A stretch of DNA of 64,000 nt from Candidatus Melainabacteria bacterium 17Bon1m (lineage in GTDB: Bacteria; Cyanobacteriota; Vampirovibrionia; Obscuribacterales; Obscuribacteraceae), in NCBI GenBank assembly GCA_032128875.1, contig JAVLKG010000014.1, positions 33,350 through 97,349 on the forward strand, written 5' to 3'. The translations under genes were made by a program, and so were the position numbers. Each line of letters starts with the position of its first letter. The stretch's first letter is position 1. Below the pieces are notes generated by a model. The model did no database searches. It had not been told where the DNA came from and saw nothing but the letters and a program-made list of their open reading frames with translations. Positions 25,737-61,338 of the stretch are shown here, piece after piece.

Positions 25737-27017
25737 TTAGGCATCGCGCGTGTCGCGCACTCGTGCAATGAGTTCTTTCTTGTTGTGTCGATTGAGGAAG
25801 TTCCAGACAGCATCAGTTGCATTGAATTTCGAGGCCGGAGTCGAGCTGTTGAATGCTCCCGGCCAATCGTGATTTCCATCTTTGATGTTGTAGAAGGTGA
25901 CTTCTCTGCCGCTTTCAGTGTCAACGGCGCTATAGGTTTGAATCGGTTCGCCTGATGATTTGGTGAGCGTCGGCTTCAAATCGTTTGCGTCAGCCCAGAC
26001 TTCGAATGCTTTCACGGCAGAAATGACGCGAGGCGCTACGCACAAGTCTAGAAGCACACCGCCTGATGCGGGAATAACATCGTCGCTGCTGCCGTGAATC
26101 AGCAAGGCGTTCATGTCACCGGTTGGCTTGTCTTGCTTCCTCAACATGCCGCCGCTAACACTGGCGACTGCCGCAACTCTGTCGTTGAGTTTTGCTGCGG
26201 CTTCTTGTGCCATCATGCCGCCGTTGGAGAATCCGACTAGATAGATGCGGTTTTGATCGATGTTTAGTTTGTCTGGAATTACGTCTGTGAGCTGTCTGAT
26301 GAAATCCACATCGTCAGAGCGGTAGAGATGATCCTTGCCGACATTCCACCAGCGCAAGTGATCACCAACCCAGCCGGTTGCGTTGGGAAAAACAGCTATA
26401 AATCCTTCTTGGTCTGCCTTTTTCTTAAACTCGGATGTTTGTGCAATTTTGTCTTTGTCTTGCATAAAGCCGTGCATCATCACGACCATTGGCAAAGGTT
26501 TGGTGGCATCGTAGTTAGGCGGTACGTGCACTGTAACGTCACGCTTCCGTCCTTGAAGTTCTAGCTCATAAGTCGTGTCACCTTTTGCATCTTTGATCTT
26601 GTCGCTGAATGCATGCATGTTTTCGACATACTTATTTATGTCTTTGACCGAAACTCCGTTGTTTTCGAAAAACCACTCATCGTTGGAAGACTGCATCAGC
26701 GATTTGTAGCGCTCGCTTAGGAAGTTCGCGAATAGATGGGGATCGGCGCCTTCGACTTTGTGCGGTGTCTTGTCGGCTTTTGCTATCTCTTTCTTGTCGA
26801 TAAACCCGTCGTGGTTGATATCGAAGTGCCCGAAAAGCTCGGCAATTTTTTCGAGCTCGTTGCCCTTTGCTGCCTCGCTTAGGAAGCGACTATTGTCTTT
26901 CTGGCTGGACGGCGACGTAAGACGAAACTCTTGAAGGTTGTCGCCTTCTGCGTGTTGAGCGCCATGCTGCAATGCTGCCGCTTCGGCAGTTTTGTACTGT
27001 CGTTCGACTGTCGCCAT
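25737..27017 (-). CDS. EF-hand plus PHB-depolymerase/LpqC-like esterase
   Basis: Canonical EF loop DINHDGFIDKKE; HVPPNYD..PMVVMMHG, DDVDFI, GFSNGG, HGSSD, GNHDWPG. Confidence 0.87.
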   Translation of the reverse strand: MATVERQYKTAEAAALQHGAQHAEGDNLQEFRLTSPSSQKDNSRFLSEAAKGNELEKIAELFGHFDINHDGFIDKKEIAKADKTPHKVEGADPHLFANFLSERYKSLMQSSNDEWFFENNGVSVKDINKYVENMHAFSDKIKDAKGDTTYELELQGRKRDVTVHVPPNYDATKPLPMVVMMHGFMQDKDKIAQTSEFKKKADQEGFIAVFPNATGWVGDHLRWWNVGKDHLYRSDDVDFIRQLTDVIPDKLNIDQNRIYLVGFSNGGMMAQEAAAKLNDRVAAVASVSGGMLRKQDKPTGDMNALLIHGSSDDVIPASGGVLLDLCVAPRVISAVKAFEVWADANDLKPTLTKSSGEPIQTYSAVDTESGREVTFYNIKDGNHDWPGAFNSSTPASKFNATDAVWNFLNRHNKKELIARVRDTRDA

Positions 27018-49407: not shown

Positions 49408-50487
49408 ATGAAATTTAAGCTAACGGCAGAATCAGCGCTCAATCTGCTCTTCGTCTTTTTGCCCATCCCGTTTCTTGCGGAGTGGTTGCATTGGTCGCCT
49501 GTCATCATTTTCGGAAGTTGCTGTCTGGCGATTATTCCCATTGCCGGGGTGATGGGGAAGGCGACCGAATATCTTGCCGACCGCGTCGGTTCGGGCTGGG
49601 GCGGATTGCTCAACGCTTCTTTTGGAAACGCCTGCGAATTGATCATTGCTTTATCAGCGTTGCGCGCTGGTTATGTAGATATGGTCCGCGCGTCTATCAC
49701 CGGATCGATTATCGGAAACATTCTTCTGGTGCTTGGCTTAAGTATGATCGCCGGCGGCATAAAGCATCAAACCCAGACTTTCAATCGTACGGCAGCTACC
49801 ACGTCAGCGACTCTTCTGGCTCTAGCCGCCATCAGTTTGACGGTTCCTGCCGTCTTCCACCACGCGGCGCACAAGGGTGCTCACGTCAACGAATTGCGCT
49901 TGGCCCTTGTTATTTCCGCTGTTCAGTTTGGCGTTTATATACTCAGTTTGATCTTCAGTTTGAGAACACACAAACAGCTCTATGTGTGCGTCGTCGACAC
50001 TGAGAAAGAAGATGCGATTGGAACGTCTGGCTGGACTGTGAAAAGGAGCATTGCCGTTCTTGCTGTTTCCACAGTTGTTGTCGCCATTCTCTCTGAGTTT
50101 CTCACTCACGCTGTTGAAGAAGCAGCGCACACTCTAGGTATGACGCAGCTTTTCATCGGTACCGTTTTGGTTGCAATTGTCGGCAACGCCGCAGAGCACA
50201 GCACCGCGGTTATGATGGCGATGAAGAACAAGATGGACTTGTCAATGAACATCGCGCTTGGCTCCGGTGCTCAAATCGCGCTTTTCGTGGCGCCTGTAAT
50301 CGTGTTTGCCAGCTTCTTCCTAGGCCACCCTATGCGCCTGCTCTTCTCTGAATTCGAGCTTTTGTCAGTCGTCGTCTCTGTAATCATTCTTGGCTATGTG
50401 GCGACGGACGGAGAATGTAACTGGCTGGAAGGCGTACAATTATTGGCTGTCTATTTGATTCTCTGCTCCGCCTTTTACTTCGCGTAG
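49408..50487 (+). CDS. Ca2+/H+ antiporter (CAX/ChaA family)
   Basis: Alpha-repeats LNASFGNACE and IVGNAAEH; many TM helices; NWLEG. Confidence 0.93.
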   Translation: MKFKLTAESALNLLFVFLPIPFLAEWLHWSPVIIFGSCCLAIIPIAGVMGKATEYLADRVGSGWGGLLNASFGNACELIIALSALRAGYVDMVRASITGSIIGNILLVLGLSMIAGGIKHQTQTFNRTAATTSATLLALAAISLTVPAVFHHAAHKGAHVNELRLALVISAVQFGVYILSLIFSLRTHKQLYVCVVDTEKEDAIGTSGWTVKRSIAVLAVSTVVVAILSEFLTHAVEEAAHTLGMTQLFIGTVLVAIVGNAAEHSTAVMMAMKNKMDLSMNIALGSGAQIALFVAPVIVFASFFLGHPMRLLFSEFELLSVVVSVIILGYVATDGECNWLEGVQLLAVYLILCSAFYFA

Positions 50488-51544: not shown

Positions 51545-52600
51545 TTACCTTGTTTCTGATTTGTTCTTACGTGTAGATTGAATGGCCATGCAGATTGCCG
51601 CAGGGATGCACGAGACCAATATGAAGCAAATGAAGTGGTTTAAGGTCGCCACAGCCATTGCCATATCAGCGTTGATGCCTGATGTTTTCATCAAACCAGT
51701 CTTCAACAAATAGTGGTATCCACCGACGGAACCTGGCGTCGGTACAAGCACTCCGATTGATCCGATAGTGAATGTGATGAGCGTATTTAGTGGTGTAACT
51801 TTGTCTTGAATGTTGAATGCCAGCATCGTAAGCCAGAGATTGAGCCAATAGCAGAACCAGATTGCAAAGCTCAGCACTGCAATCGGGAAATAGGCAACCG
51901 GGTTAGTCAGCGACTTTGTCCCGACTCCAAACTGGTCAGACAGGTCTTCCAGTTTGGTTCTCCAGTTATCCTGCAACTTCGATCTAACGAAGTCGAGATT
52001 TAAGAACCAGCGCATGATTTTGTGGACGTGAGGCAAAACCGCTAATCCTACAAAGGTAGCCACAGTCAGACCAATTCCACCCGGTACCAGCCAGGCAGGC
52101 AGTTCACCGAACATCTCTTTAGGTACGACCATAAGCGTGATGCCGAGCAGGAGCGCCAGCATGGCAATGTCCAAAAGCCTGTCGATAAACATAGTGGGCA
52201 AAACGCCAGCCACCGGCAGTTTTTCCGACTGCGAAATGGAGACCAGCCGCGCTACTTCCCCGCCGCGTGGGATGGCTATATTCACTGCATAGCCCATCAT
52301 GACTGCGGTAAAAGAATTAAACAGGCTGATTTTGTGATCGGCGACAGGCTTCAGCATCAATATCCAGCGTATCGAGCGCAAAAGGTGACTGATAACTGCA
52401 TTAATCATCAGCAAAGCTAAATAAATCGGATTAGATTTAACCGAATACTCCCAAATCGCCGCCAGGTTGCAATCGCGGAAAGAAAAATAGAGAAGACCCA
52501 GCGCCGCTCCTATCATGACTACCTGCTTTATCAGGCTCTTGGCTTTGTTGTCTGTCTTGGCTGCTGAGGTTTCGGGCTGCGTTTGGGTTTCGGATTGCAT
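51545..52600 (-). CDS. Lysylphosphatidylglycerol-synthase TM / UPF0104 flippase-like protein
   Basis: RSIRW, NIAIPRGGEVAR, DRLLD, PTPGSVGGY; multiple TM helices. Confidence 0.88.
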   Translation of the reverse strand: MQSETQTQPETSAAKTDNKAKSLIKQVVMIGAALGLLYFSFRDCNLAAIWEYSVKSNPIYLALLMINAVISHLLRSIRWILMLKPVADHKISLFNSFTAVMMGYAVNIAIPRGGEVARLVSISQSEKLPVAGVLPTMFIDRLLDIAMLALLLGITLMVVPKEMFGELPAWLVPGGIGLTVATFVGLAVLPHVHKIMRWFLNLDFVRSKLQDNWRTKLEDLSDQFGVGTKSLTNPVAYFPIAVLSFAIWFCYWLNLWLTMLAFNIQDKVTPLNTLITFTIGSIGVLVPTPGSVGGYHYLLKTGLMKTSGINADMAMAVATLNHFICFILVSCIPAAICMAIQSTRKNKSETR

Positions 52601-56626: not shown

Positions 56627-57019
56627 CTAAAGCTCCGTTTGCTTGGAAGGAACGGCTTTGTTCATTCCCTCGACCAGCTCGTTGAGCGTTTGCCAGTTTA
56701 ACCTATTTGCTACCGGACCGGCTTCCTCGTCCGTCTTCAACAGTTTTTTCAAATACTGATCCAGCTCCGCTGCAGCCCGGCTGAGTTCCGCAAAGCCGTA
56801 TGACCCGGCAGTCCCCGCCAGCCGGTGCGCAATTGTATGCGCCTCTTTCAGCCATTCATCCGGGTTTTCTTTATTGCTCCGCGCCTTTTCGACAAACCCG
56901 TTCATCTCAGTGAGCCTGTCGGGCAGCTCGTTGAGATAGTCCGCGCGCAGTGTCTTCAGCACCTCTTCGAGCGCTTCATCATATTCAGGATCGTTCGCGT
57001 TTTCGTCAGGCATGGGCAT
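56627..57019 (-). CDS. Hpt (histidine phosphotransfer) domain protein
   Basis: AHRLAGTAGSYGFAELSRAAAEL. Confidence 0.9.
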   Translation of the reverse strand: MPMPDENANDPEYDEALEEVLKTLRADYLNELPDRLTEMNGFVEKARSNKENPDEWLKEAHTIAHRLAGTAGSYGFAELSRAAAELDQYLKKLLKTDEEAGPVANRLNWQTLNELVEGMNKAVPSKQTEL

Positions 57020-57029
57020 AGCTCATTGC

Positions 57030-58022
57030 TTATTGCGGCAACGCTTCGCTGCGTTTCTTTCCAAGCCAATATTCCTCGTATTGGCTCCATTCCCTATCGT
57101 CTGTTGTGTAATCTGCGAACATTGCGATACCTTCGAAAGATTCAAGTTTTGCATTCCTGTCTGCAAGCCCCAGCCGAACCCCTCGTAGGGCGTTTTTCAA
57201 ACTCTCGGAGTACGGATGGTGCGCCAGCGTTTGATTGTCGTAGGTAGGCAGACCGAGAATGACCTTACATGCCGGATTTGCTTTCGCACAGTCGGCAGTT
57301 ACATGAATCGCCTGCTGCGCGACCAACAAAACGTAAGCTCTAGGTATATATAAGTAGGAGTCGTAGCTCATCACCGCAATCTGATCGCAGCGCTTCGCGA
57401 CGTCTTGGAAGTATTCATCGGACCAACCCCAGAGAATGCCCGGATACCACATTGGCGTTGCCACGCTGAGCAATCTATCTTTCGGCAGTGCCTGACGTGT
57501 TTCTTCCAAAAGCCTTAGCAGTCCTTGGGCTCCGTTCAGCGCAAATTCATAGTCAACTTGCACGCCGTCAAATCCACACTCATTGACGAGCCAGTGAAAC
57601 TCCTCAACCAAAGCATTTCGCACTTTTGGGTTATCCAAGTCTACTTCTAATGAACCCACATAAACCCACGCAATGGCGCGCGTATTCGGCGCATTTTCCT
57701 TTACGCCTTTTGTTAGAGTCTTAGCTCCTTGCTCGTTGCGCAGTTTCAAGCGTCCATCGGATCTTGTCGTGAGAACATGGAAGTACGCATATCGCACCTG
57801 GTTTGTCGCAAGCTGCTTGTACATGTCCGCGAATTCAGGCTCGCTGTGCTTGCCCGCATACCAAAGATACCGCAGCCAAATTCCGTTTTTACCGGTGTTG
57901 AACTTGCTCTGGGGCGTAGGTGCAACCGATTCGTATCTCAGGTAGTCGATTAACCCGGCAATAAGGACAATACCTAGGAAGGCGCAAAGAACAGTCGCAA
58001 TTTTCGGTTTGCGCAATGCCAT
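57030..58022 (-). CDS. Membrane-anchored GH18-like glycoside hydrolase
   Basis: N-terminal TM; GFDGVQVDYE, VMSYD, ILGLPTY motifs. Confidence 0.75.
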   Translation of the reverse strand: MALRKPKIATVLCAFLGIVLIAGLIDYLRYESVAPTPQSKFNTGKNGIWLRYLWYAGKHSEPEFADMYKQLATNQVRYAYFHVLTTRSDGRLKLRNEQGAKTLTKGVKENAPNTRAIAWVYVGSLEVDLDNPKVRNALVEEFHWLVNECGFDGVQVDYEFALNGAQGLLRLLEETRQALPKDRLLSVATPMWYPGILWGWSDEYFQDVAKRCDQIAVMSYDSYLYIPRAYVLLVAQQAIHVTADCAKANPACKVILGLPTYDNQTLAHHPYSESLKNALRGVRLGLADRNAKLESFEGIAMFADYTTDDREWSQYEEYWLGKKRSEALPQ

Positions 58023-58400
58023 TTAAGAACCATTGACCAGCTTTTTGATTTCGCTCGGAAGCGTCAGAGGGTCGAATGGTTTGCTGATCACTCCACTGGC
58101 GCCGAGCCTCGTGTATTGTTCGACCTCTTGCGGCTGAACTTTTGCGGTCATCAAAATCACAGGAATGTGCTTCAATTGCTCATCTTCGCGCAATTTGAGA
58201 AGCGTGGTCGGGCCGTCCATGCCCGGCATCATCACGTCTAAAAGGATTACATCCGGCTTTTCCTTTCGCGCCAATTCGAGCCCCGCAAAGCCGGACTCCG
58301 CCAGGAAGACTTCCCACTTGCCGACGCTCGTCAGGCAAACCTGGCATATCCGCCTAATGCTCTGGTCGTCGTCGACCATCAATACTTTTTTGATTTCCAC
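58023..58400 (-). CDS. Single-domain response regulator
   Basis: VDDD, LLDVMMPGMDG, MTA, KPFDP. Confidence 0.93.
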   Translation of the reverse strand: MEIKKVLMVDDDQSIRRICQVCLTSVGKWEVFLAESGFAGLELARKEKPDVILLDVMMPGMDGPTTLLKLREDEQLKHIPVILMTAKVQPQEVEQYTRLGASGVISKPFDPLTLPSEIKKLVNGS

Positions 58401-58665
58401 TATCTATTCTTACCGATTAGCCCTACCAATGATTTTCGTTGATTCTCATATCCTACTCAAAGCGTATATTAACCCAGCTGTTGATGTTCTTTCCCTTAAC
58501 CTTAACCGCCACAGAACCGCCACACTTCGCGAAGATAATCTCTCCCGTAAGCCCAAGATTCGCCAATAAGTCCCGGTAGATTACCTCTAACCTCCCCGCT
58601 GAGTTCAAATAATTAACCGAGTTGTCTCGGACACCCCCTTTTTACCGTCAATTTCGAGGTTTTGC

Positions 58666-60132
58666 ATGAGCGGCAAGCTTGATACGGCTTTCGAGCCGAC
58701 TAGTTACGATGCACAAAAATTGATTGCCTGTGGCGATCGCATTGACTCTCAGGTCACCAGCGAAGCTATTGGTGCAGCCTATGGAAAGGGCGCGCTGGCA
58801 GCTATCGAGAAGGGCAAAGACACTAGCGCCGCATACTTGAGCGATTTCCAGATCGTGGGAGCTGACGACAAGGCTACTTCAATTGCTGTTCTAGCGTCCA
58901 AGCCATTGTCTGCAAATCTCGAAAGCGCAGTCGACAAAATTGAAAAGGCTGCCAACGGTGGATTGACGGGCATAGGCACTGATGAAGCGAGTTTGTGGGA
59001 TGCGATTGCACCACTCAATGAGAAAGAGTTTGAATTGGTAAACGAGCGTTTTGCGCAGAAGTACGGCAAAACCTACGCTTTGTTTGGCGAAAAGTGGGAT
59101 GTTCGCAGAGAGCTGATCGATGAGCTTGGAACAGTTGATCTTGCTCGCTTCGACCGAATGATTGCGGATAAGAAGAGAAATGATGTTCCTGAAGAGTTTA
59201 GAGCAAGTGGAGAAACTCTTTTGAAGGAAGGCTCTGGACTCAAGGTCGGCGAATTGAATCGCGTCAAACTTGCGGATGGGCGAGACTATGATGTTTACGT
59301 CCCGAAGAACGCTGACAGTCGTGCACCAGTTATGGTGGCAATGGGTGGCGCTGGTCTCGGTGACATGAAAGGAGTAATGTCTACAGAAACCGGCTTGACT
59401 ATTGAAGCTGAACGTAGTGGCTCGATCGTTGTGTTCGCAAATCCGAAGGCTAGAGCTCAGGAGGGGCACTACGGCATTGAGAGCGCTACCTGGAACGTGC
59501 CGGGACGCAGCAACATGCTCGCGAAAGGCGATAACTCATATGATGATCGAGACTATCTCGATAATGTTTTGAAAGACCTTGCAACAAAATCAAGTACCTC
59601 CGACAAAGTCGGGTTGATTGGATTCTCCGATGGCGCGCGCTTCGCCGAAGTCTACGCCGCCGATCGCCCTGAGAGAGTCGCCGGCATCGCAGCAATGAGC
59701 GGCACCTGGATGAAGGGTGATCAAGCTCCAACCAAGGCACTTCCGATCATGATCGTCCATGGTGAGAAGGATGAAATTCTTCCGTATCGCGGTGGTGAAG
59801 GTTCGACTTCGGACAAGATTCCTGTGCAGACCAACCTCAGCAAATCACTTCCTTCTCTGCAAGCAAAGGTGTGGAGCGAAGCCGGAGGCGGTGACGCGCA
59901 GATTGTCGAACGTTCAATGGAGGGAAACGTTGAACGTCGCGTATACAACGCTGGTTCGAACACTGTCACCGAATACATGATCAAGGGCGCCGACCACGGC
60001 GTACATGATTACAGAAACAACGGTAGCCGCATCTTGCAATGGGCACTTGGGCAGCCCGATTTGCAGCAAGACATGGTGACTAAAAGCAGCGGATTCTTGA
60101 AGCAACACATCGTTCGTGATTTGAAGAAATAA
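58666..60132 (+). CDS. Annexin-repeat plus PHB-depolymerase/LpqC-like esterase
   Basis: GIGTDEASL...FAQKYGK...ELIDELG annexin-like repeat; YDVYVP, DDRDYL, GFSDGA, HGEKD, GADHG. Confidence 0.8.
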   Translation: MSGKLDTAFEPTSYDAQKLIACGDRIDSQVTSEAIGAAYGKGALAAIEKGKDTSAAYLSDFQIVGADDKATSIAVLASKPLSANLESAVDKIEKAANGGLTGIGTDEASLWDAIAPLNEKEFELVNERFAQKYGKTYALFGEKWDVRRELIDELGTVDLARFDRMIADKKRNDVPEEFRASGETLLKEGSGLKVGELNRVKLADGRDYDVYVPKNADSRAPVMVAMGGAGLGDMKGVMSTETGLTIEAERSGSIVVFANPKARAQEGHYGIESATWNVPGRSNMLAKGDNSYDDRDYLDNVLKDLATKSSTSDKVGLIGFSDGARFAEVYAADRPERVAGIAAMSGTWMKGDQAPTKALPIMIVHGEKDEILPYRGGEGSTSDKIPVQTNLSKSLPSLQAKVWSEAGGGDAQIVERSMEGNVERRVYNAGSNTVTEYMIKGADHGVHDYRNNGSRILQWALGQPDLQQDMVTKSSGFLKQHIVRDLKK

Positions 60133-60157
60133 TGGGTTGGTGTTCAACCATAGATTT

Positions 60158-61117
60158 TCAGGAGGATAGTTTTTCCTGCAAGAACTTGAGCATTTTAGCG
60201 AATCCGTTTTCCCAATCTTTAGTCTTACCACCGCCACCATGACCGCCACCTTCAATCGCGATCAAATCAGCGTTGACATTTTTAGCATGGCAGACTTCCA
60301 TCAAATCTGTGGCTTGGTCGAAAGGAACAATCTCATCTTTTGTTCCGTGCATTAGCATCATCGGCGGATCTTGCGCATCGGCAAAAGTGATAGGGCTCGC
60401 CATCATGCGATCTTGCGCAATTGTTGCTGGATTGGTGCGATCTGCATCGTTGAACAAGCTATCGACAATTCCTTGAATGAAGGGCGTGAATTTCTTGGTC
60501 AGGTTGGTCGGTCCAGCCAGACTTACGGTAGCGCAGATATGTCCATGAATAGGAGTAATTGGAAGCGACTTGCTAGCGATATCGTTTTGAACTTCGGATA
60601 GCATAAGCGCGACGTGACCGCCAGCGGAGCCACCAAACAAGGCGATCTTGTCAGGGTTGATTTTGAACTCATCTGCGTTGTCCAGCAGGAAATTGATGCA
60701 CTGCGCAGAGTCATTGATTTGCGCTGGAAACTTTGCTTCCTTCGTCAATCTGTACTCAATACTCGCGGATGCATATCCCATATTTGCCAGTCTAATCATG
60801 TGCTCGCGCATTTGTTTGCGGTTGCCGGAAGTCCATCCACCACCGTGAATGCATACGACGAGCGGAAAAGGTCCAATGCCTTTCTTGGGTCTGGCAAAAT
60901 CAAGCTTTAACGTTCTGTTTGGGTGTTTTGCAATGACAATGTCGTTTTGGGTAAACGGCTGATCAAGCGCGAAGGCAGCGAAAGATTTCGGCGATGCGCA
61001 CATCATGGTTGCTGTGGTCAGCAAACCGACCAACGACAATGCGCTCAAGCGCGCAGACCAAGGCATTCGCTTCATGTTTTGGTAATTGTCGTTTTCTGCC
61101 ATTTCAGAATGTGTCAT
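60158..61117 (-). CDS. Exported alpha/beta hydrolase (HGGG-type esterase)
   Basis: IHGGGW, GGSAGGH, HGTKDEIVP, GGGHG; signal-like N-terminus. Confidence 0.9.
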   Translation of the reverse strand: MTHSEMAENDNYQNMKRMPWSARLSALSLVGLLTTATMMCASPKSFAAFALDQPFTQNDIVIAKHPNRTLKLDFARPKKGIGPFPLVVCIHGGGWTSGNRKQMREHMIRLANMGYASASIEYRLTKEAKFPAQINDSAQCINFLLDNADEFKINPDKIALFGGSAGGHVALMLSEVQNDIASKSLPITPIHGHICATVSLAGPTNLTKKFTPFIQGIVDSLFNDADRTNPATIAQDRMMASPITFADAQDPPMMLMHGTKDEIVPFDQATDLMEVCHAKNVNADLIAIEGGGHGGGGKTKDWENGFAKMLKFLQEKLSS

Positions 61118-61338
61118 CTCAGTCTTGTCGTCGCTGTTTTTTTATCGCTGTTTTGTCCGCATTGATTGACAGGCACTTCCGACGCTCTTGCGCGGAAAAT
61201 GTTTTATGGTTAAAAGCACCATTGGAGCGGAAAAGCCCGTCCCTGGTGTTTCTTACCCTATATATGCGGTTTGAAAACCTTCTTGACTACAGGGCGTGGC
61301 GAACCCCTGCGCCCCACTTCAGCCTGTCTCGTGTGCCC

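Follow-up and report, generated by a model that had tools for sequence, protein, structure and literature searches.

A single annexin repeat on a serine esterase of an Obscuribacterales genome: a candidate module for calcium-dependent membrane docking

Bacterial relatives of the annexins have been described before: the available portions of Kodavali et al. 2014 (PMC3894181) report about thirty homologues from seventeen species, with single-repeat forms and toxin fusions among them, an annexin-Lipase_3-Ntox3 protein in Microscilla marina, and a hydrophobic loop-tip residue in bacterial and plant annexins, and those of Zhang et al. 2012 (PMC3482391) report PVC-type toxins with a single annexin domain that is always followed by an enzymatic toxin domain, an accessory membrane-interaction role being proposed for the annexin domain. 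Here we describe an annexin-repeat esterase gene found in a 64,000-nucleotide (nt) stretch of Candidatus Melainabacteria bacterium 17Bon1m (Obscuribacterales; GenBank assembly GCA_032128875.1, contig JAVLKG010000014.1, positions 33,350 to 97,349), the whole of which is called the window below; sequence profiles and a predicted fold indicate that the segment preceding its esterase domain is a true annexin repeat, a unit familiar chiefly from animal proteins and known there for binding membranes in response to Ca2+. Such a fusion is not unprecedented, because bacterial annexin-enzyme and annexin-toxin fusions were described in 2012 and 2014, and the architecture fits the one in PMC3482391, with another enzyme and in a lineage that is absent from the accounts of the two papers, as far as their available text goes. 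Judging from sequence and models, there seems to be an even chance that the repeat docks the esterase in a Ca2+-dependent manner on an acidic membrane, where binding, substrate and location are what we infer.

The gene is the sole long frame at its locus, with no in-frame start farther upstream and a GAGG 7-10 nt 5' of its ATG, and its homologues (n=47, about 470-530 amino acids (aa)) begin at the same MSG. With the aid of a predicted structure, the domain order is a disordered N-terminus (residues 1-82), an annexin repeat (83-168), a conserved linker (169-195) and an alpha/beta-hydrolase esterase (196-488); the AlphaFold2 model of the whole protein has a mean predicted local distance difference test (pLDDT) score of 83.8 and a predicted template modelling (pTM) score of 0.80, with pLDDT <50 at residues 1-28 and 40-70. 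In the features below and throughout, counts out of 46 refer to the members of the family alignment, and profile, A1, which holds the window protein and 45 of the 47 homologues (two short fragments, P0022 and P0033, being excluded).

58666..60132, + strand: annexin-repeat esterase gene, 488 aa, ATG start, stop codon 60130-60132
58666..58911, + strand: residues 1-82, poorly conserved and mostly predicted to be disordered (from pLDDT), with no hydrophobic segment
58912..59169, + strand: single annexin repeat, residues 83-168, with helices A (83-98), B (107-114), C (119-137), D (146-153) and E (156-168)
58969..58986, + strand: AB-loop motif G102-I-G-T-D-E107, candidate type II calcium-site loop with the hydrophobic I103 at its tip
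59068..59100, + strand: residues 135-145 (KTYALFGEKWD), an about 9-residue insert between helices C and D that is not in canonical annexins
59119..59124, + strand: D152-E153, candidate acidic cap at the end of helix D, which we take to be such from an alignment to the annexin consensus
59170..59250, + strand: residues 169-195, family-specific conserved linker with K169, G182 and L185 invariant (46/46)
59251..60129, + strand: residues 196-488, alpha/beta-hydrolase serine esterase of the poly(3-hydroxybutyrate) (PHB)-depolymerase/CE1-like group, from Pfam, NCBIfam and Foldseek
59620..59634, + strand: nucleophile elbow G319-F-S321-D-G323, S321 being invariant (46/46); aligns with GFSNG of the EF-hand paralogue described below
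59770..59772, + strand: Asp369, catalytic acid, invariant (46/46)
59995..59997, + strand: His444, catalytic base, invariant (46/46)

The peptide that an earlier note on this DNA, made from the letters alone, had quoted as an annexin repeat corresponds to residues 88-166 and does lie at 58927-59163, with G102-I-G-T105-D-E107 and D152-E153 inside it; its assignment through the Pfam Annexin model, however, stands for family and module profiles and not for the single sequence. The latter reaches PF00191 with E 0.085 only (13.4 bits, below the cut-off of 25), and phmmer of it against the PDB gives annexins only at E 0.04-0.5, whereas with the A1 profile annexins head the PDB matches (annexin VI at 1.1e-14, annexin V at about 1.5e-8), above every esterase. 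A profile of the module itself (A3; 84 positions from 23 sequences, including one module from a giant open reading frame (ORF)) has 75 PDB matches at E<=1e-3, the best 60 of the 75 all being annexins or annexin A2 chimeras, with the best scores for annexin VI (4.4e-25) and annexin V (6.6e-16); in its alignment, which stops near position 56 at the C-D insert, G-I-G-T-D-E falls on the GLGTDE of annexins V and VI, and the next two helices are aligned too. Among 5.8 billion proteins, A3 reciprocally finds an annexin A6 from a fish (2.5e-13) and Corallococcus proteins that carry Pfam Annexin, and among 1.84 billion representative proteins it has 1283 matches at E<=1e-3, a number that falls to 393 at 1e-10 and to 28 at 1e-30; Pfam Annexin (E 1e-13 to 1e-94) was present in 41 of the 41 best library matches scanned, and the partner domains among the best library matches include eCIS_core+TNT, PLD and RelA_SpoT. 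The four- or eight-repeat annexin core is not what is found here, as there is one repeat only, residues 1-82 holding no further one and residues 169-488 being linker and esterase. In the precomputed Pfam column, PF00191 is given for 0/47 of the homologues, the named ones of which appear as dienelactone hydrolase or PHB depolymerase.

Prediction also gives the segment the five-helix annexin fold, a point on which the earlier note had staked its assignment. Residues 70-200, when modelled alone with AlphaFold2, form five helices at pLDDT 88.5, and of the 48,161 chains compared by VIA-align, the six best are annexin A2 (in a chimera), two giardins, annexin A8, domain 1 of annexin I and an annexin from a schistosome (Z 8.4-10.5, root-mean-square deviation (rmsd) 1.7-2.1 A over 73-77 residues); the first row that is plainly unrelated has a Z of 5.8. 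The 45 rows listed by Foldseek for this model of 131 residues are without exception annexins or fusion constructs of annexin A2, two MAGI-1 entries being among the latter, with a best rmsd of 1.5 A over 80 columns; the accompanying E-values are weak (0.05-0.4), as would be expected of a domain of this length.

Type II calcium sites of annexins follow a motif of GxGT and then an acidic residue after 38 residues. Both elements named in the earlier note are present, GIGT in the AB loop and D152-E153 at the homologous end of helix D, and they are jointly conserved, but their spacing is non-canonical (a gap of 47 residues vs the 38 of the motif). The family falls into a motif-kept group of 25/46, the window gene included, with an xxGT loop (GxGT[DN] in 24) and DE in 25/25, and a motif-lost group of 21/46, with SxGP[DN], GW[SG]YDF or GLGI[DE] loops and DE in 0/21 (four keep E153); loop and cap thus appear, from the alignment, to be kept or lost jointly, as expected for one site. 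The loop-tip residue is hydrophobic in 38/46 (I, L, W, A or F), and W144, in the C-D insert, is conserved in 37/46.

Calling the catalytic domain an esterase is safe on sequence and model grounds. Abhydrolase_2 (2.8e-8, 34.3 vs 23 bits), DLH and Esterase are above their Pfam cut-offs, and the Ser321/Asp369/His444 triad is invariant also in the members that lack the calcium motif. The best NCBIfam model, NF050058 (type 1 extracellular polyhydroxyalkanoate (PHA)-depolymerase catalytic domain; 3e-20), stays at 72.8 bits, below its cut-off of 150, and TIGR01840 at 24.4 bits, below 107.85. The nearest folds according to Foldseek are Aspergillus acetyl-xylan esterase B (9j07, 2.6e-15), Lihuaxuella PHB depolymerase (9byu and 8daj, about 1e-13) and feruloyl esterases, so that the lipase activity for which the earlier note had proposed an assay is not indicated by them. 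Enzymes of the PHB-depolymerase/CE1-like group are typically secreted, and extracellular PHA depolymerases have a signal peptide and a C-terminal substrate-binding domain; neither was found in this protein, which has no hydrophobic N-terminus and ends with the hydrolase.

The same catalytic domain recurs in the window on an EF-hand protein, the relationship claimed in the earlier note being borne out by hhalign (99.5%, E 1.2e-22, 258 columns, up to the C-terminal helix), and the EF-hand itself appearing real from its conserved loop, though Pfam EF-hand models stay under their cut-offs.

25737..27017, - strand: EF-hand esterase, 426 aa, with an N-terminal EF-hand in place of the annexin repeat
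26787..26822, - strand: EF-hand loop DINHDGFIDKKE, with F62, G63, F65, D66, G71 and E77 invariant in 16/16 family members

The canonical EF-hand loop has 12 residues, DxNxDGxIxxxE, which DINHDGFIDKKE fits, while EF-hand_1 gives 20.6 bits (below the cut-off of 25.4) and no second hand to pair with it was recognised. As the two esterases share only 28% identity (BLASTP over 173 aa, E 7e-18), they are old paralogues and not the result of a recent domain swap; their N-terminal modules do not align, and NF050058 scores 147.3 bits on the EF-hand esterase vs its cut-off of 150. A second invariant acidic motif of this paralogue, NDEWFFENNGVS at residues 111-126 (N112, D113, E114, F117, E118, S123 and D126 in 16/16), may represent a second, degenerate hand that pairs with the first, or else a metal site of another kind. 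Two further signal-less esterase paralogues were seen in the genome, one joined at its C-terminus to a trypsin-like protease (784 aa; L016, C18:60987-63338) and one inside a 905-aa protein whose other 600 residues have no Pfam match (L014, C12:26639-29353).

That neither esterase has a signal peptide, as the earlier note had it, agrees with the absence of a hydrophobic N-terminal segment in 45/46 annexin-esterases and 15/16 EF-hand esterases; the Kyte-Doolittle window used is crude, and in it 2/3 of the paralogues of the genome taken as signal-peptide controls were at or above the cut-off of 2.0, the third and a BD-FAE esterase encoded next to the annexin-esterase being just below. One EF-hand-esterase relative, a distant one, has a strongly hydrophobic, signal-like N-terminus. 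The search for N-terminal leaders shared genome-wide, which the earlier note had proposed as a check, found none in this genome, which is 93% complete (a scope that applies to all genome-wide absences given here): a hidden Markov model (HMM) and phmmer of residues 1-83 matched only the annexin-esterase ORF among 50,660 six-frame ORFs (E<=10), as did the HMM of the linker at the same threshold. A likeness by eye to the N-terminus of the esterase-trypsin ORF on C18 was not recovered by search.

Put together, a plausible course of events can be proposed for the annexin-esterase. A soluble two-domain enzyme would be made without a Sec or Tat signal; the G102-I-G-T105 loop and D152-E153 would constitute the intact type II calcium site of its one repeat; raised Ca2+ would make the repeat dock onto an acidic phospholipid surface, with the hydrophobic I103 at the loop tip; and docking would place the Ser321/Asp369/His444 esterase within reach of an ester substrate that lies on this surface or close to it. 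In the EF-hand paralogue, another calcium module would then be used on the same catalytic scaffold.

Beyond the window, the 30 related loci in a species-representative collection come from metagenome-assembled genomes titled Melainabacteria, Obscuribacterales or 'Cyanobacteria bacterium', with one titled Flavobacterium psychrophilum, which is probably a mislabelled bin. The full-length annexin-esterase family was found in 30/107 genomes of the order (E<=1e-50) and 9/38 genera, at 1-4 copies per genome, and the annexin module by itself in 65/107 genomes (E<=1e-5), 23/39 of the good-quality ones and 20/38 genera, and in 1/300 genomes sampled evenly from the remainder of the phylum. The module is a lineage-specific expansion in Obscuribacterales on which no paper was found in a literature search (annexin and Melainabacteria together returned only unrelated host or gut studies, judged by titles), and its abundance has probably gone unnoticed because the repeat escapes routine annotation. 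Some loci of the family deserve mention in their own right: duplicate annexin-esterase genes of different calcium-motif subtypes lie in tandem in some genomes (L037, with ORFs of 511 and 516 aa; G036:C27:67966-71045), an orthologue is split into adjacent ORFs of 323 + 242 aa in a genome of the same genus (G096:C377:15865-17366), and a copy in another genome has an internal TAG (G059:C211:23674-24813), the split and TAG-bearing copies being possible pseudogenes or assembly errors.

Besides ORFs of about 500 aa, the module occurs in giant ORFs of 1,500-9,257 aa, often of about 2,800-2,900 aa, although matches of A3 to such giants are partly favoured because A3 includes one giant-ORF module. An HMM from A1 alone, which is free of the 2600-aa ORF in question (L009; C15:63415-71214, - strand, of the same genome), nevertheless matches that ORF, and does so end to end at E 1.4e-12. 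L009 carries RHS repeats (8.4e-31) and Pfam Annexin (1.6e-8); at residues 776-854 it has the annexin subtype of the esterase in full length, C-D insert included, and near its C-terminus there is a weak PRTase-CE match (1.3e-4, below the cut-off). It looks like a polymorphic-toxin-type giant. The shuffling of modules that the earlier note had suspected is therefore seen within one genome, as the annexin-esterase subtype recurs in this RHS-repeat ORF. Three other giants of the genome, L010 (C1:204328-209721, 1798 aa), L011 (C1:915583-921015, 1811 aa) and L012 (C3:422413-426855, 1481 aa), carry degenerate annexin-like repeats and no signal peptides, and L010 passes Pfam Annexin (48.3 bits, 1.1e-12).

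Within the window, the annexin-esterase gene is locally alone on the + strand, and the wider neighbourhood suggests no operon.

58023..58400, - strand: divergent single-domain response regulator gene, upstream of the annexin-esterase; Pfam Response_reg 6e-28
56627..57019, - strand: Hpt gene near the response regulator; Pfam Hpt 3e-9
60158..61117, - strand: BD-FAE esterase gene, convergent, downstream of the annexin-esterase; signal peptide

The response regulator (77-98% identity) stands upstream in 7/30 related loci, those with the closest orthologues, and its association and that of Hpt with the gene may be a functional link or mere synteny. Other neighbours encode Fpg, a receiver-GGDEF-EAL protein, DUF885, a GH18-like protein and an acyl-CoA dehydrogenase. 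A Na+/Ca2+ exchanger (49408-50487, +) and a lysyl-phosphatidylglycerol-synthase-like membrane protein (51545-52600, -) are encoded 6-9 kb upstream. A hairpin lies immediately 3' of the stop codon (60135-60149), and a promoter/terminator scan was not above chance, with one promoter-like site vs 1.8 expected and four terminator-like ones vs 2.2 expected. Four runs labelled RNA-Seq (one sample of one study) contain the whole stretch as a 9-kb contig across genes of both strands, their longest contigs exceeding 130 kb; because long contigs cover both strands, these runs carry genomic DNA, either of this organism or of a nearly identical one, and are silent on transcription. In the same libraries, near-identical contigs of 72-156 kb span the locus (window 57000-61200).

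The docking might take place outside the cell or at the inner leaflet, two options that the evidence does not separate. On balance, we tentatively favour, at less than even odds, that the protein leaves the producer cytoplasm by non-classical release and acts on membranes that are foreign or have been shed, which other esterases of the group in the genome having signal peptides, the signal-like N-terminus of the distant EF-hand relative and the occurrence of the annexin subtype in the RHS giant would support, as would the secretion typical of this esterase group and the fact that most bacterial annexin repeats are known from toxin-like giants; that an influx of calcium recruits it to the inner leaflet of the producing cell, for which the missing signal peptide and the conserved response regulator and Hpt would speak, seems unlikely.

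Several points weigh against calcium-dependent docking and the release that would accompany it. The protein has no signal peptide, and no hallmark of type III, IV or VI secretion or of a contractile sheath was found in the genome; response regulator and Hpt, the only conserved neighbours across the 30 related loci, are cytoplasmic signalling genes; the nearest esterase folds are polysaccharide-ester and polyester enzymes, not membrane-lipid ones; and no experimental study of any bacterial annexin was found in a literature search. As to the site itself, the AB loop has three residues more than that of canonical annexins, and E153 comes 48 residues after T105 vs the canonical 39, because of the 9-residue C-D insert. 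The co-occurrence of GT and DE follows clades and so is not independent evidence, and the repeat must have a calcium-independent role, because 21/46 members without the motif keep both fold and triad.

Such a role is the core of the view, improbable to us yet worth weighing with care, that the repeat serves only as a structural or protein-contact module, packing for example on the esterase via the linker, with GxGT as a relic: the motif-less members keep not only repeat and triad but also K169, G182 and L185, a pTM of 0.80 despite 62 residues with pLDDT <50 hints at a fixed domain arrangement, and both the AB loop and the spacing of the cap are non-canonical. Calcium-dependent docking accounts better, however, for the retention of the six-residue loop and DE in the gene's clade at only 50-60% overall identity, which points to selection on the site, and for the profile that places the loop exactly on the GLGTDE of calcium-binding annexin repeats. 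A homodimer prediction (residues 70-488, two copies) scored 0.00 and speaks neither for nor against a dimer. It is distinctly unlikely that the protein is instead exported and works as an esterase on a polymer, be it a polyester or an acetylated or feruloylated polysaccharide, its repeat standing in for the usual substrate-binding domain and binding an anionic polymer or a cell surface, not a phospholipid bilayer; the best folds, AoAXEB, the Lihuaxuella PHB depolymerase and feruloyl esterases, as well as the best NCBIfam model, would suit it, and so would the secreted BD-FAE esterase and the GH18-like protein that adjoin the gene in the closest genomes. PDB 2hyu ('Annexin A2 with heparin tetrasaccharide') is among the Foldseek rows, and some eukaryotic annexins bind glycosaminoglycans. 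The scores are nonetheless far under the curated cut-offs given above, 45/46 members have no signal peptide, and BD-FAE is kept in 3/30 loci and GH18 in 2/30, in the closest relatives only.

The earlier note had proposed an effector, possibly for predation or host interaction, which, as a calcium-activated protein that a specialised secretion apparatus injects or otherwise delivers into cells of prey or host, we consider very unlikely. Bacterial annexin repeats do often occur in polymorphic-toxin-like proteins (the RHS giant here; eCIS_core+TNT, PLD and RelA_SpoT partners; the toxins in the available text of PMC3482391), and the N-terminus is disordered, but VipB and PAAR (type VI secretion), VirB4 (type IV), FHIPEP (type III/flagellar export) and the contractile-sheath Phage_sheath_1 were not found in the genome; a search for the gp19 tube protein likewise gave nothing there, which is uninformative, as no control genome matched either. 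Moreover, the protein has no eCIS_core, PVC metallopeptidase or other trafficking domain (Pfam, E<=1) and no leader in common with other ORFs of the genome, its catalytic domain is invariant and not polymorphic, and no neighbour is immunity-like. Barely credible, finally, is the idea of a PHB depolymerase that works inside the cell and, controlled by calcium, draws on its storage granules: public pipelines do label homologues 'poly(3-hydroxybutyrate) depolymerase', and a signal peptide is absent, but the scores are well under the PHA-depolymerase cut-offs, and the lack of any match in the genome to a PHA synthase model (PhaC_N, class III) makes such a role unlikely.

No established view is changed by the annexin-esterase, but it points to an unannotated annexin-repeat expansion in Obscuribacterales, non-photosynthetic relatives of the cyanobacteria, at a time when prokaryotic annexins are still regarded as hypothetical in the annexin field. 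As a small soluble protein with one repeat, an intact-looking site and natural motif-less relatives, it would be a convenient test of whether a single repeat binds Ca2+ and membranes, and also of what such a repeat adds to an enzyme. It is quite doubtful, though conceivable, that the repeats of the order at large are calcium-dependent membrane-docking modules on small enzymes and RHS giants alike, of which the esterase would be the simplest single-repeat, calcium-switched case; were this true, the annexin-esterase may act in the cytosol when calcium flows in or membranes are damaged, in parallel to membrane repair by eukaryotic annexins, and the still-empty class of 'prokaryotic annexins' would gain a functional member.

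How, then, does the locus compare with what is known? With the eukaryotic annexins (A5, A6, A2 and the giardins), it shares a homologous repeat (profile E down to 4e-25), a predicted five-helix fold (rmsd 1.5-2.1 A), the GxGTDE AB loop, a helix D that ends in an acidic residue and the lack of a signal peptide, and it differs from them in having one repeat vs four or eight, three additional AB-loop residues and the 9-residue C-D insert. The bacterial annexins of PMC3894181, as far as its available text describes them, likewise have one or few repeats, a conserved GxGTD, a hydrophobic loop tip and a fusion to a Ser-Asp-His lipid/ester hydrolase; the Microscilla marina protein, as given there, has Lipase_3 where ours has a PHB-depolymerase/CE1-like domain and a toxin domain where ours has none. 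The phylum is also another one, neither 'cyanobacteri' nor 'esterase' occurs in the main text of that paper, and what we describe is a conserved family in 30/107 genomes of one order. The PVC/eCIS toxins, in the accessible part of PMC3482391, have the same succession of a single annexin domain and a C-terminal enzymatic domain, whereas here there is no PVC metallopeptidase or eCIS_core, no sheath gene was found in the genome, and the C-terminal domain is not variable.

On the catalytic side, the PHB-depolymerase/CE1-like esterases (8daj/9byu; AoAXEB, 9j07; feruloyl esterase, 8iy8) are the best matches for residues 196-488 and have the same alpha/beta-hydrolase fold and triad, unlike which our protein, at 16-20% identity and under the NCBIfam cut-offs, has no signal peptide or substrate-binding domain and possesses a linker specific to its family as well as an insertion at about residues 378-400. 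Closest to home, the EF-hand esterase at 25737-27017 differs in having an EF-hand loop vs an annexin repeat and is far closer to the type 1 PHA-depolymerase model (147.3 vs 72.8 bits), but it belongs to the same lineage and has a homologous catalytic domain, no signal peptide and, like the annexin-esterase, an N-terminal module of the calcium type.

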